Source: a plasmid. Taken from it: a stretch of 64,000 nt of DNA. A model generated the notes under the pieces. It did not search any database, had not been told where the DNA came from, and saw only the letters and a program-made list of their open reading frames with translations. The position numbers and the translations under genes were made by a program. Positions 1 to 9,255 of this stretch are shown one piece after another. How positions within the stretch are numbered: position 1 is the first letter of the stretch; every line of letters starts with the position of its first letter. The DNA lies in assembly GCF_055900595.2 (NCBI RefSeq), contig NZ_JBVWEU010000003.1; one strand, 5' to 3'.

Positions 1-75
1 GCTTTCGCTCCTCTGAAGGGGCACATGAACGTCCCGTCGCCGGTATCCGGTTTATCTCACATCTTTCAGTCAGGA
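1..75 (+). promoter_or_regulatory. 3' end of an ssi/Frpo-like single-strand promoter element, truncated by the window edge, immediately upstream of ssb
   Basis: Window starts with GCTTTCGCTCCTC..., resembling the GGAGCTTCGCTCCTCCGGG hairpin at the 3' end of the two full repeat copies (6350-6380, 9208-9230); lies just upstream of the ssb RBS. Confidence 0.35.
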
Positions 76-82
76 GGTTCTT

Positions 83-610
83 ATGAGTGCACGTGGTATC
101 AACAAGGTCATCCTCGTCGGGCGTCTGGGCAATGATCCGGAAGTCCGTTACATCCCCAACGGGGGTGCAGTGGCAAACCTGCAGGTGGCTACGTCAGAAA
201 GCTGGCGCGACAAACAGACGGGGGAGATGCGGGAGCAGACGGAATGGCACCGCGTGGTGCTGTTCGGCAAGCTCGCGGAAGTGGCAGGTGAATATCTGCG
301 CAAGGGCGCGCAGGTCTACATCGAGGGGCAACTCCGTACCCGTAGCTGGGAAGATAACGGTATCACCCGTTACGTCACTGAAATTCTTGTTAAGACCACG
401 GGCACCATGCAGATGCTGGGGAGTGCACCACAGCAGAACGCTCAGGCGCAACCGAAGCCTCAGCAGAATGGGCAGCCACAGAGTGCTGACGCGACGAAAA
501 AAGGTGGCGCGAAAACGAAAGGCCGTGGACGTAAGGCCGCGCAGCCCGAGTCTCAGCCGCAACCGCCGGAGGGGGAGGATTACGGGTTTTCAGACGATAT
601 CCCGTTCTGA
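83..610 (+). CDS. ssb: Plasmid single-stranded DNA-binding protein
   Basis: 175 aa; OB-fold N-terminus, Gln/Pro-rich linker and the acidic C-terminal tail ending DDIPF typical of SSB; AGGAGG RBS upstream. Confidence 0.95.
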
Positions 611-661
611 CTGGCCTGACTGTGATAACCGCCCCGCCCTGCGCGGGGCATCACCGGAGAT

Positions 662-901
662 ATGAGGATGAGCGAATATTTCAGAATACTTCAGGGACTG
701 CCTGACGGTCCTTTTACCCGCAAACAGGCCGAAGCCGTTGCCGCACAGTACCGGAACGTCTTTATCGAGGATGACCACGGAGAACATTTTCGCCTGGTTG
801 TCCGTAATAACGGAACAATGGTCTGGCGTACCTGGAATTTTGAGGACGGTGCCGGGTACTGGATGAACCATGTCATCCGGGATTTCGGCATTCTTAAGTA
901 A
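662..901 (+). CDS. DUF905 / YkfF-like small leading-region protein
   Basis: 79 aa; [10 protein letters not shown]...HFRLVV...MVWRTWNFE motif recalled from YkfF-type proteins; sits between ssb and the ParB-like gene. Confidence 0.6.
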
Positions 902-964
902 GAGAGGTGCCGGACGGGAACGCGTCCGGCAGACATACAACCATCCCGGTCAAAGGAGAAATAT

Positions 965-2923
965 ATGTCAGTTACAGAGTCTAAGACAAAAACGGAGCGT
1001 AAATCCAGCCGTAAACCTGCAAAAACGCAGGAAACAGTCCTGTCTGCCCTGCTGGCGCAGACGGAGGAAGTGAGCGTGCCGCTGGCCTCACTGATTAAGT
1101 CACCGCTGAATGTGCGCACGGTGCCGTATTCTGCGGAGTCCGTCAGTGAACTGGCTGATTCCATTAAGGGGGTCGGCCTGCTGCAGAATCTGGTTGTTCA
1201 TGCCCTGCCAGGTGACCGCCACGGTGTCGCCGCAGGTGGTCGCCGACTGGCTGCACTCAATATGCTGGCAGAGCGTGGCATCATTCCGGCGGACTGGCCT
1301 GTCCGCGTGAAGGTTATTCCGCAGGAACTGGCGACGGCGGCATCAATGACTGAAAACGGTCATCGTCGGGATATGCACCCTGCTGAACAGATTGCCGGAT
1401 TCCGCGCAATGGCGCAGGAAGGCAAAACACCTGCACAAATCGGTGATTTGCTGGGCTATTCACCCCGCCATGTCCAGCGAATGCTGAAACTGGCTGACCT
1501 TGCGCCTGTCATCCTCGATGCGCTGGCAGAAGACCTCATCACCACCGAGCACTGTCAGGCGCTGGCGCTGGAGAACGACACCGCTCGTCAGGTGCAGGTG
1601 TTTGAAGCCGCCTGTCAGTCAGGATGGGGCGGTAAACCGGAAGTGCAGACCATTCGTCGTCTGGTGACCGAAAGTGAAGTGGCGGTGGCGGGGAACAGTA
1701 AATTCCGCTTCGTGGGGGCTGATGCCTTCTCGCCAGATGAACTGCGCACCGATTTGTTCAGCGATGACGGGGACGGTTATGTCGACCGCGTGGCGCTCGA
1801 TGCCGCCCTGCTGGAAAAACTCCAGGCTGTCGCTGAACACCTTCGGGAAGCCGAAGGCTGGGAATGGTGCGCCGGACGTATGGAGCCTGTCGGTTTCTGC
1901 CGTGAGGATGCCGGAACATACCGCAGTCTGCCGGAGCCGGAAGCTGTGCTGACGGAGGCGGAAGAAGAACGCCTGAACGAACTGATGGCACGTTACGACG
2001 CGCTGGAAAATCAGTGTGAGGAATCCGACCTGCTGGAAGCAGAAATGAAGCTGATGCGCTGCATGGCGAAGGTCAGGGCGTGGACGCCGGAGATGCGTGC
2101 CGGAAGTGGCGTGGTGGTGTCCTGGCGTTATGGAAACGTATGTGTCCAGCGTGGTGTGCAGTTGCGCAGTGAGGATGACGTGGCTGACGACGCTGGCCGC
2201 ACGGAACAGGTGCAGGAGAAAGCCTCCGTGGAGGGAATCAGTCTGCCGCTGCTGACGAAAATGTCTTCCGAACGCACGCTGGCAGTCCAGGCGGCACTGA
2301 TGCAGCAGCCGGACAAATCCCTGGCACTGCTGGCATGGACGCTCTGCCTGAATGTGTTTGGCAGCGGAGCGTACAGTAAACCAGCACAAATCAGCCTGGA
2401 ATGTAAACATTATTCGCTGACCAGCGATGCGCCATCGGGGAAGGAAGGTGCCGCGTTCATGGCGATGATGGCAGAAAAAGCCCGTCTTGCGGCCCTGTTA
2501 CCGGGGGGATGGTCACGGGACATGACGACGTTCCTTTCACTCAGTCAGGAGGTGCTGTTATCCCTGCTCAGTTTCTGCACCGCGTGCAGCATCCACGGCG
2601 TTCAGACCCGCGAGTGTGGTCACACGCCACGCAGCCCGCTGGACACGCTGGAGAGCGCCATCGGTTTTCACATGCGCGACTGGTGGCAGCCGACAAAAGC
2701 AAACTTCTTCGGACACCTGAAAAAGCCGCAGATTATCGCAGCCCTGAATGAGGCAGGACTGTCCGGTGCCGCACGGGACGCGGAGAAGATGAAGAAAGGC
2801 GATGCGGCTGAACATGCAGAGTTCCATATGAAAGACAACCGCTGGGTGCCTGGCTGGATGTGTGCACCACGTCCACAGACGGATACCACTGAACGCACTG
2901 ATAACCTGGCTGATGCCGCCTGA
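965..2923 (+). CDS. ParB-like nuclease domain protein of the leading region
   Basis: 652 aa; N-terminal ParB/Sulfiredoxin-like segment (LQNLVVHALPGD...GGRRLAAL) plus HTH-like segment (PAQIGDLLGYSPRHVQRMLKLA); conserved position upstream of psiB. Confidence 0.8.
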   Translation: MSVTESKTKTERKSSRKPAKTQETVLSALLAQTEEVSVPLASLIKSPLNVRTVPYSAESVSELADSIKGVGLLQNLVVHALPGDRHGVAAGGRRLAALNMLAERGIIPADWPVRVKVIPQELATAASMTENGHRRDMHPAEQIAGFRAMAQEGKTPAQIGDLLGYSPRHVQRMLKLADLAPVILDALAEDLITTEHCQALALENDTARQVQVFEAACQSGWGGKPEVQTIRRLVTESEVAVAGNSKFRFVGADAFSPDELRTDLFSDDGDGYVDRVALDAALLEKLQAVAEHLREAEGWEWCAGRMEPVGFCREDAGTYRSLPEPEAVLTEAEEERLNELMARYDALENQCEESDLLEAEMKLMRCMAKVRAWTPEMRAGSGVVVSWRYGNVCVQRGVQLRSEDDVADDAGRTEQVQEKASVEGISLPLLTKMSSERTLAVQAALMQQPDKSLALLAWTLCLNVFGSGAYSKPAQISLECKHYSLTSDAPSGKEGAAFMAMMAEKARLAALLPGGWSRDMTTFLSLSQEVLLSLLSFCTACSIHGVQTRECGHTPRSPLDTLESAIGFHMRDWWQPTKANFFGHLKKPQIIAALNEAGLSGAARDAEKMKKGDAAEHAEFHMKDNRWVPGWMCAPRPQTDTTERTDNLADAA

Positions 2924-2974
2924 TGAACAACCACACCGCCCCGCCGGAGACGGGGCGGCAGCAAGGGAGATACC

Positions 2975-8231: not shown

Positions 8232-8254
8232 TCAGCAGGAGCAGAGCAAACAGC

Positions 8255-8413
8255 ATGACGATTGCAGAACGTCTTATTCAAAAAGGCGCTCTTGAAGTGG
8301 CGCGGGAAATAGCCTGCCGGCTTCGGGATATGGGCTGGACGCCGGAACGGATTCAGGAGGCAACCGGACTTTCCGGTGAAGAACTGAAAAAACTGTTTCC
8401 TGATGAGCTGTAG
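8255..8413 (+). CDS. Free-standing Rpn C-terminal-domain-like small protein (RpnS-like)
   Basis: 52 aa (MTIAERLIQKGALEVAREIACRLRDMGWTPERIQEATGLSGEELKKLF) resembling the C-terminal tail of the upstream Rpn protein (AERLKQEG...IARQLQKTGMSFAQICQITGLSEAELKKI). Confidence 0.4.
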   Translation: MTIAERLIQKGALEVAREIACRLRDMGWTPERIQEATGLSGEELKKLFPDEL

Positions 8414-8443
8414 CCTGGCATTCTGCCAGGCTGTGAATCACGC

Positions 8444-8695
8444 TCACACATCCTCTGCCGTTTCCCCCAGTTCATTTTCCAGTCGCCTGATGATATCTGC
8501 CTTACGCATCCCCTGCATGTGAGGCAGCAGGTCACGGACTGAAAGAGCCTGGGTGGTCCTCCAGACGGTGACGTCCACCTGTTCCGCATTTTCCCAGGCG
8601 TGCCATGTTCTCTGCGTCACGCCAAATTCTCTGGCCGCTTTTTCGCGTGACCAGAGCATGCTTTTTCGCCAGATTCGCAGTTCCCAGCCGGTCAT
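8444..8695 (-). CDS. Small HTH DNA-binding protein (Cro/XRE-like), opposite strand to the leading-region genes
   Basis: 83 aa; LWSREKAAREFGVTQRTWHAWE helix-turn-helix-like segment; ATG at 8695-8693. Confidence 0.55.
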   Translation of the reverse strand: MTGWELRIWRKSMLWSREKAAREFGVTQRTWHAWENAEQVDVTVWRTTQALSVRDLLPHMQGMRKADIIRRLENELGETAEDV

Positions 8696-8710
8696 AAAAC
8701 ACCTTTGAAA

Positions 8711-8796
8711 AAGTGAAAAAACTTCACTTTATTTTATCATCATAATCATCAAATCAGCGCGATAAATAAGTGTGAAAAAGTGAAGAAATTTCACTT
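8711..8796. promoter_or_regulatory. Two identical palindromic operator-like sites AAGTGAA-N5-TTCACTT (8711-8729 and 8778-8796)
   Basis: Perfect 7-bp inverted half-sites with 5-bp spacers, twice, in an AT-rich stretch just upstream of the - strand HTH gene start. Confidence 0.55.
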
Positions 8797-8894
8797 TTTT
8801 TTGATTGTGGGTGTCGTGCTGTTTTCTCTGTTTTCACCTGTGCGGGAGTGGTGCGCCAGTGACCACAGCATGCCGTTGTTGTGCCGTCGGTTTT

Positions 8895-9255
8895 CTCCGG
8901 TCGCGCCGGATGCGGCGCTCCCTGCACACCTGACGGTGTGTAAGGCCACTGCGCCTGATGGCGCAGCTGTCTCTGCCTGTCTGCCGCCGCACTGCGGCCC
9001 GTTCTCCGCAGACGGACTTTCCGGGGGTACATACACGACCACATCCCGTTTCAGTCGTCCAGGGGAGAGATGTACCAGCCACAAAACTTTTTGCCGCAGG
9101 CGTCAAAAACTTTTGCGTCTGCCCCCGGACAACTGCCCCGTGACGTGGTGAGCGTCCCCCGTCGGAAAGGTCCACTGCGGGGAAATCCCCGAAGACCCGG
9201 ACGGCAGAAGGAGCTTCGCTCCTCCGGGAAATGACCTGGCTGACCCGGCAGTCGT
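8895..9255 (+). promoter_or_regulatory. ssi/Frpo-like single-strand promoter element (repeat copy C, oriT-proximal)
   Basis: Shares long near-identical blocks with 6025-6400 (for example GCGCTCCCTGCACACCTGACGGTGTGTAAGGCCACTGCGCCTGATGGCGCAG and CAGCCACAAAACTTTTTGCCGCAGGCGTCAAAAACTTTTGCGTCTGCCCCCGGACAACTGCCCCGTG). Confidence 0.6.

Follow-up and report, generated by a model that had tools for sequence, protein, structure and literature searches.

Hairpin elements in the leading region of an IncI-type plasmid match known ssi/Frpo single-stranded DNA promoters

We analysed a 64,000-nucleotide (nt) stretch of plasmid DNA (NCBI RefSeq assembly GCF_055900595.2, contig NZ_JBVWEU010000003.1; hereafter the window), in which GC-rich hairpin elements precede several blocks of plus-strand genes. 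We are highly confident that these elements are the known ssi/Frpo single-stranded DNA (ssDNA) promoters, which drive early expression of establishment and anti-defence genes in the recipient, and this confidence extends jointly to the assignment of positions 1-10700 to the leading region of an IncI-complex conjugative plasmid (IncI1 or B/O/K/Z type). An initial annotation, made from the sequence alone, had proposed such a single-strand-promoter model, and the model is supported by identity to the ssi elements of plasmid ColIb-P9, by collinearity with plasmid pESBL-EA11, by transfer polarity and by a strand-biased, covarying fold. The present analysis contributes the identity with characterised elements, the strand polarity, and a fold that covaries and favours the minus strand. 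The system itself has already been described for these very sequences and is not a discovery.

The elements under discussion are the following.

1-16, minus strand: tail of ssi3, the last 16 nt of the element (its 5' end on the transferred strand), recognised by its match to a sister plasmid
4826-5178 (approximate), minus strand: class 2 hairpin element 5' of ardA, recognised by identity to the sister plasmid, F and pESBL-EA11 and by its fold
5869-6038, minus strand: GC-rich repeat extension common to ssi2 and ssi3 and absent from ssi1, from alignment with the sister plasmid and from its fold
6039-6366, minus strand: ssi2, probable class 1 ssDNA promoter, from homology, fold and covariation
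8900-9226, minus strand: ssi1, probable class 1 ssDNA promoter and the copy nearest the origin of transfer (oriT), from homology and fold
10694-10686, minus strand: oriT nick region ACATCCTGT, from the sequence

Class 1 repeats, their relatives and the direction of transfer

Comparisons were made with the sister plasmid NZ_CP135672, plasmid F and pESBL-EA11. According to the listing of open reading frames (ORFs) and the annotation of the closest plasmids, positions 1-13842 comprise the leading region and, after it, the oriT operon. Among plasmids, the closest match is of IncB/O/K/Z type (97.7% identity), and at least 5000 plasmid records match the region. Positions 1-10700 are collinear with the leading region of pESBL-EA11 at 93-95% identity, and a repZ pseudoknot (Rfam PK-repZ) at 63830-63979 supports an IncI-complex replicon.

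When the window was compared with itself by blastn, a comparison for which the initial annotation had proposed a dot-plot, direct repeats were recovered at 6038-6388 and 8897-9249 (86.0% identity over 357 columns with 8 gaps, E 2e-111), and no copy was found beyond these two in the 64 kb. The two elements had been described as near-identical and about 360 bp long; their coordinates stand to within about 15 nt, but near-identity is confined to two blocks located by a gapless repeat finder, one of 113 nt (6173-6285 and 9036-9148, 96%) and one of 76 nt (6038-6113 and 8897-8972, 95%). A third copy, the tail of which had been placed at 1-75, is real, but the element proper occupies only 1-16 and is followed by a leader at 17-82. 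Window 1-100 is 100% identical to positions 8130-8229 of the sister plasmid, in which a full copy (7776-8145) lies directly 5' of ssb, and positions 7815-8145 of this ssb-proximal copy are 99.7% identical to ColIb-P9 (AJ238399:11381-11711). Within the window, blastn gave no significant match of 1-85 to the other two copies; recognition of 1-75 as a repeat copy from the window alone was therefore rejected, as comparison with sister plasmids is required.

As reference sequences we used the table of known Frpo/ssi elements in Samuel et al. 2024 (PMC11541004), and the ssi sequences as listed there correspond to the minus strand of the window. On that strand, ssi1 is 99.1% identical over 327 nt to AJ238399:1459-1787 of ColIb-P9 and ssi2 is 88.8% identical over 330 columns to AJ238399:4353-4678. 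Identity to pESBL-EA11 is 99.2% for ssi1, 92.7% for ssi2 and 100% for the ssi3 tail, while the core of the class 1 elements matches ssiD of F at 74% over approximately 135 nt, together with conserved 3' hairpins. Rfam holds no family for these elements, and its only matches in the window, PK-repZ and an AgrB-like RNA, lie elsewhere. As the initial annotation had noted, a co-oriented plus-strand block lies directly 3' of each copy (ssb at 83, ORFs at 6418 and 9276); the leader between element and start codon measures about 50-70 nt in each case.

The homology between ssi2 and ssi3 continues for 170 nt beyond the repeat shared with ssi1, since 5869-6364 aligns with positions 7645-8142 of the sister plasmid at 86.8% over 499 nt. 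The minus strand of 5687-6040, which spans this extension, folds with a z-score of -6.1. A minus-strand 'hypothetical protein' annotated at 13817-14344 of the sister plasmid (approximately window 5688-6215) overlaps ssi2 and the extension, and probably reflects a false gene prediction in GC-rich repeat DNA.

The three elements ssi1, ssi2 and ssi3 of the IncI1 plasmid ColIb-P9 were reportedly described by Bates and colleagues in 1999 and by Nasim and colleagues in 2004, and are said to have been annotated also in p1ESBL and p15ESBL by Benz and colleagues in 2023; the Frpo1 (ssiD) element of F reportedly goes back to Masai and Arai in 1997. The present plasmid shares with ColIb-P9 the same elements, their order and the genes downstream, and the spacing of the first two copies is 2863 nt here and 2894 nt there. 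It differs in that its middle copy carries the apex of the oriT-proximal copy, and in that it appears to be IncB/O/K/Z-like, judging from the best plasmid match, whereas ColIb-P9 is IncI1. In pESBL-EA11, as here, class 1 elements precede ssb, the ORF144 homologue and the DUF4942 gene, and a class 2 element precedes ardA; unlike the window, pESBL-EA11 has an extra 390-nt ORF before rpn, and its second class 2 promoter (klcA) and its class 3 promoter (M.EcoGIX methylase) correspond to DNA beyond the left end of the window. Frpo1 (ssiD) and Frpo2 of F have a homologous core, the same hairpin architecture and the same conserved bulge in the 3' arm, and an ssb-psiB operon likewise follows one class 1 copy in F, but the 5' half of the element differs. 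Class 1 copies number two in F (MOBF/MPF_F) and three in IncI plasmids (MOBP/MPF_I).

The direction of transfer can be read from oriT. The nick region ACATCCTGT lies inside an IncI-type oriT, immediately 5' of nikA, and the R64-derived nick region of pCTX-M3 is ACATCTTGT (PMC7440800). The genes nikA and nikB form the oriT operon (10778-13842), which marks the lagging side. Nicking presumably follows ...ATCCTG, as in R64 and RP4, which would place the nick at about 10686/10687 here. Since ACATCCTGT is on the minus strand beside nikAB, the minus strand is the one transferred and serves as template of all plus-strand genes; transfer runs from about 10686 toward coordinate 1 with the 5' end leading. 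The polarity of oriT, which the initial annotation had cited in favour of its model, fits that model, as the nick sequence is on the minus strand next to nikAB and all genes of the blocks are on the plus strand.

Fold, covariation and strand bias

The elements were folded with DNA parameters, and z-scores were taken from 100 shuffles. The minus strand of ssi2 folds at -124 kcal/mol (z = -8.5) and that of ssi1 at -110 kcal/mol (z = -8.0), with 0 of 100 shuffles as stable in either case; ssi3, folded from the copy of the sister plasmid, reaches -131 kcal/mol (z = -10.3), and again no shuffle was as stable. Folding in DNA mode had been proposed as a check of the model, and these values for ssi2 and ssi1 establish a stable structure on the transferred strand. 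When 300-nt windows were slid along the first 11 kb, those with the most stable folds all fell at 4850-5170, 5650-6400 and 8850-9250. The short perfect hairpins described in the initial annotation are real, for example at 6044-6059, 6066-6081, 6083-6119 and 6346-6365 in ssi2, three of them lying on the 3' side of the transferred strand (6044-6119; 8903-8978 in ssi1) and one on the 5' side. What dominates each element, however, is a single long, unbranched and imperfect hairpin, of 225 nt in ssi2 (6121-6345, apical loop 6234-6237) and of 162 nt in ssi1 (9013-9174, apical loop 9097-9100). An unpaired bulge of 10 nt was observed at 6203-6212 in ssi2.

An alignment of ten class 1 elements from IncI, F (IncF), Serratia, Salmonella and an insect metagenome was used to assess covariation. 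Pairing was retained in 91% of cells, and 18 of 34 pairs showed changes on both sides, values which 0 of 500 shuffles reached; control structures with slid partners gave 40-50% pairing and 4-8 pairs with changes on both sides. The minus-strand fold is more stable than that of the plus strand by 16-17 kcal/mol in the three IncI copies and by 8-11 kcal/mol in F, and a hand tally of wobble cells in the ten-element alignment gave approximately 50 G.T against approximately 14 A.C on the minus strand. From this strand bias we argue that selection acts on the transferred DNA strand and not on mRNA.

The same observations bear on the idea that the structures act in plus-strand RNA, as 5' leaders or as terminators of the upstream operon, with transcription from ordinary double-stranded promoters. 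Palindromes do fold on both strands, and the plus-strand DNA reaches -84 to -93 kcal/mol; there are also GC-rich hairpins 3' of ardA at 5715-5800, and a sigma-70-like plus-strand site lies 5' of ssi1 at 8713-8740. Against this, the energy difference between the strands favours the minus strand in IncI and F alike, and the roughly 50 G.T cells would become A.C mismatches in plus-strand RNA. A scan for double-strand promoters found no plus-strand sigma-70 consensus site inside any element and none 5' of blocks 1-3 (numbered from the left end of the window), and the published induction is confined to fresh transconjugants and fades as double-stranded DNA (dsDNA) forms (PMC12672017). We therefore regard an action at the RNA level as very unlikely.

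Even less credible, to the point of being negligible, is the notion that the repeats have no role of their own, being inert duplications or copies of a small selfish element that spread in the leading region. The copies do recombine, as the apex of ssi2 in this plasmid is identical to that of ssi1 and unlike the ssi2 apex of ColIb-P9 and pESBL-EA11. In distantly related plasmid families, however, the hairpin has been kept by compensatory changes; the elements also have the same place and direction with respect to the operons in F and in IncI, and loss-of-function phenotypes have been published (PMC9849209).

The recombined apex deserves a description of its own. A region of about 85 nt, corresponding to the promoter core, is identical in ssi2 and ssi1 both in the window and in the sister plasmid (6190-6290 against 9055-9150), while the flanks of ssi2 remain ColIb-ssi2-like (100% in the outer columns) and ssi2 of ColIb-P9 and pESBL-EA11 keeps its own apex. 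An ssi1-type apex within ssi2-type flanks shows a gene-conversion patch between the repeats, the core of ssi1 having been copied into ssi2. This patch is the only new detail of the analysis, and a small one. The copied core could, speculatively, bring two early operons to a similar strength or timing. A further proposal, which we hold only tentatively and think rather improbable, is that the repeat is modular and evolves in concert, the small hairpins and the 170-nt extension of ssi2 and ssi3 being a separate functional module. Were this true, the extra modules might serve, for example, in primer hand-off or SSB phasing, which is again speculation.

Proposed mechanism, promoter boxes and the question of priming

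On the ssDNA-promoter reading, the minus strand would be nicked at oriT (about 10686/10687) during conjugation and would enter the recipient 5' end first, proceeding toward coordinate 1, so that each operon would arrive with its 3' end first and its promoter last. Elements ssi1, ssi2 and ssi3 (the last mostly off the window), and the unrelated class 2 element, would each fold on the single strand into a long imperfect hairpin, in which the AT-rich upper stem and the conserved bulge of the 3' arm may imitate an already opened sigma-70 promoter. Host RNA polymerase would then start inside the hairpin and read the transferred strand toward oriT. The result, ahead of complementary-strand synthesis, would be a transient burst of expression from four operons, namely DUF4942; ORF144-ORF88-rpn; ardA; and ssb-ykfF-yfhA-psiB-psiA-ORF198. 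Second-strand synthesis would remove the hairpins and so switch the promoters off. A folded single strand also recruits RNA polymerase, assisted by SSB, at the sso of rolling-circle plasmids and at the hairpin promoters of phage N4; these are analogies with no sequence relationship, as sso primes DNA synthesis only and the N4 promoters use the virion RNA polymerase.

Published work on related plasmids agrees with such a scheme. In F, the proteins encoded downstream are no longer produced early when Frpo1 or Frpo2 is deleted (Couturier 2023, PMC9849209), and transcription of F Frpo from ssDNA in vitro has been published (cited in PMC9849209 and PMC7690428). For pESBL-EA11, Wen et al. 2025 (Nucleic Acids Research, PMC12672017) described six ssDNA promoters in three classes, with one hairpin 5' of each leading-region operon; RNA-seq of transconjugants showed an induction that reached about 500-fold at most at 15 min and faded as dsDNA formed, and start sites determined by 5' rapid amplification of cDNA ends (RACE) matched the predictions. 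A survey counted 13,089 Frpo homologues in 6,006 conjugative elements (Samuel et al. 2024, PMC11541004).

All copies have a common layout. The upper stem is AT-rich, with GCAAAA(G/T)TTTTT paired with (A)AAAA(G/T)TTTTG, and is closed by an apical loop of 4-8 nt; in the 3' arm, 8-10 nt remain unpaired as a bulge that carries the conserved motif T-N-(C/T)-A-T, and below the bulge lies a G/C stem of GTCCGGGGG paired with CCCCTGGAC. The candidate -10 box falls in the bulge and reads TACATC in both ssi1 (9074-9069) and ssi2 (6211-6206), where it is preceded at a distance of one base by TG; across the copies the candidates are TACATC, TATATC, TGCATC and TGCATT. The candidate -35 box, at the 3' side of the apical loop, is GCGGCA here, ATGGCT in ssi2 and ssi3 of ColIb-P9 and TGGGCA in F, and is separated from the -10 candidate by a spacer of 17 nt. 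A -10 box left unpaired is in keeping with published accounts of a promoter reconstituted in the stem (PMC9849209; PMC7690428). For this placement the predicted transcription starts on the plus strand are at about 6262-6268 and 9125-9131, and the leaders would be about 150 nt long.

Several points weigh against this reading. Each candidate hexamer fits the consensus at only 3-4 of 6 positions, and a linear sigma-70 scoring scan of the transferred strand in ten homologues found no strong conserved -35/-10 pair; for these two reasons we infer the boxes and retain only their positional placement at the apex and in the bulge. The -35 candidate lies right at the hairpin tip, and the start site of ssi2 is extrapolated from ssi1, as its apex is unlike that of ColIb-P9 and pESBL-EA11. 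The sigma-70-like site at 8713-8740 makes some conventional transcription into block 4 possible. Finally, transcription and start sites are taken over from published work on near-identical plasmids.

The elements might instead be mainly ssi priming signals, on which a short RNA primer is laid down on the hairpin and extended by DNA polymerase III, gene expression being secondary. Indeed, it was as a priming signal that ssiD/Frpo of F was discovered, and the RNA transcribed from it in vitro remains in an RNA-DNA hybrid and primes DNA synthesis (PMC7690428; PMC12672017). A strand-specific fold suits priming as well as transcription, and no part in promoter function has been assigned to the three small conserved hairpins or to the 170-nt extension. 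Priming alone does not sit well, however, with the location of each copy exactly 5' of an operon in the matching orientation, from whose start codon it is separated by a leader of about 50-70 nt, nor with the loss of downstream expression when Frpo1 or Frpo2 is deleted in F (PMC9849209), and three or four sites within 10 kb are more than priming needs. We consider it possible, but on balance unlikely, that priming is the main role. The two roles are compatible, and priming is probably a function additional to that of promoter rather than an alternative to it.

The class 2 element, early operons and neighbouring genes

In the initial annotation, ardA had been grouped behind the element that serves the ssb block. 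This did not hold, since ardA has an element of its own at approximately 4826-5178, in the 465-nt gap that precedes the gene. It is 94.6% identical to positions 6001-6353 of the sister plasmid, which lie 5' of a klcA-like antirestriction gene, 89% identical to F (4396-4748) and 88.5% identical to pESBL-EA11 5' of ardA, and it has no blastn match to the class 1 elements. The arms of its main stem are inverted, approximately 4913-4965 pairing with 5102-5150, and the minus strand of 4722-5312 folds at -132 kcal/mol (z -4.4). In pESBL-EA11 the class 2 promoters are the hairpins 5' of klcA and ardA, and a start site within the hairpin has been reported for transconjugants (Wen et al. 2025, PMC12672017); judged by its sequence, the element at 4826-5178 is the class 2 ssDNA promoter of these authors. 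We infer candidate boxes TTGCAT ... TACGAT in the 3' arm on the transferred strand; on the plus strand the -10 position would read AGATGG. The window contains four early operons. The mixture of known genes proposed for the blocks is otherwise correct, with ssb, psiB and psiA confirmed by NCBIfam and ardA by Pfam, but ardA belongs to a block of its own. Genes and operons are listed below; all are on the plus strand.

17-82: leader from ssi3 to the ssb start codon, 100% identical to pESBL-EA11 9140-9221
83-4721: block 1, ssb to ORF198 (NCBIfam, annotation of the sister plasmid)
83-610: ssb (NCBIfam SSB, 2e-116)
662-901: DUF905/ykfF (annotation of the sister plasmid)
965-2923: ParB-like yfhA, 652 amino acids (NCBIfam ParB domain)
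2975-3412: psiB (NCBIfam PsiB, 9.5e-80)
3409-4128: psiA (NCBIfam PsiA, 3.9e-113)
4125-4721: ORF198, 198 amino acids (ORF listing)
5186-5686: block 2, ardA antirestriction gene (Pfam ArdA PF07275, 5.9e-30)
6418-8225: block 3, ORF144, ORF88, rpn and terminator (ORF listing, annotation of the sister plasmid)
6418-6852: ORF144, 144 amino acids (ORF listing)
6945-7211: ORF88, 88 amino acids (ORF listing)
7276-8193: Rpn-family nuclease gene (PHROG transposase/Rpn family, 1.9e-101)
8205-8225: intrinsic terminator closing block 3, found in the sequence
9276-10166: block 4, DUF4942 gene and terminator (annotation of the sister plasmid and pESBL-EA11, PHROG)
9276-10124: DUF4942/YdiA-like (methyltransferase-like) gene (annotation of the sister plasmid and pESBL-EA11)
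10136-10166: terminator of block 4, a hairpin followed by a T run, read from the sequence
10778-11110: nikA (ORF; annotated NikA in pESBL-EA11, mobA in the sister plasmid)
11122-13842: nikB relaxase (ORF; annotated NikB in pESBL-EA11, relaxase in the sister plasmid)

Searches of Pfam, NCBIfam and PDB sequences gave nothing significant for ORF198, ORF144 and ORF88, which in PHROGs match families of unknown function only. The DUF905, Rpn and DUF4942 families have already been counted among the largest of leading regions. The PHROG matches of the DUF4942 protein include the phage DNA methyltransferase family phrog_6263 (9e-18), and Samuel et al. 2024 (PMC11541004) use the label 'DUF4942; Methyltransferase'; its gene (9276-10124) is the first that can be expressed after entry.

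Elements of this kind allow anti-restriction, SOS-inhibition and other establishment genes to be expressed within minutes of entry and are central to the spread of resistance plasmids, a significance already established from F, ColIb-P9, pESBL-EA11 and the survey of 13,089 homologues. For this window the use of the analysis is mainly correct annotation: the transferred strand is fixed and the leading region is split into four early operons. ORF198, ORF144, ORF88, rpn and the DUF4942 gene are thereby marked as early-expressed candidates for establishment or anti-defence roles.

Some neighbouring features were also observed. Just 3' of ardA, a 78-nt segment with two GC hairpins (5715-5791) recurs 3' of the klcA operon, at 83% identity in the sister plasmid (7465-7541) and in pESBL-EA11 and partially (48 nt) in F; it might act as a terminator or mark the end of an operon. 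Between block 3 and ssi1, a helix-turn-helix regulator gene is encoded on the minus strand (8444-8695), an orientation that is wrong for transcription from the transferred strand. The AT-rich stretch beside it contains two palindromes, AAAGTGAA..TTCACTTT, at 8706-8735 and 8773-8802, and this gene, the palindromes and the sigma-70-like site at 8713-8740 may together form a conventional, repressor-controlled promoter. Directly beside oriT, a minus-strand ORF of about 111 amino acids (10210-10551), annotated 'MobC' in pESBL-EA11 and 'hypothetical' in the sister plasmid, is likewise not transcribable from the incoming single strand. Further into the window, the AgrB match of Rfam lies on the minus strand at 18961-19050 and scores 50.4 bits against a gathering score of 40; AgrB is an antisense RNA of DinQ-type type I toxin systems, and the transfer region of pESBL-EA11 contains an annotated DinQ-like toxin, DqlB.

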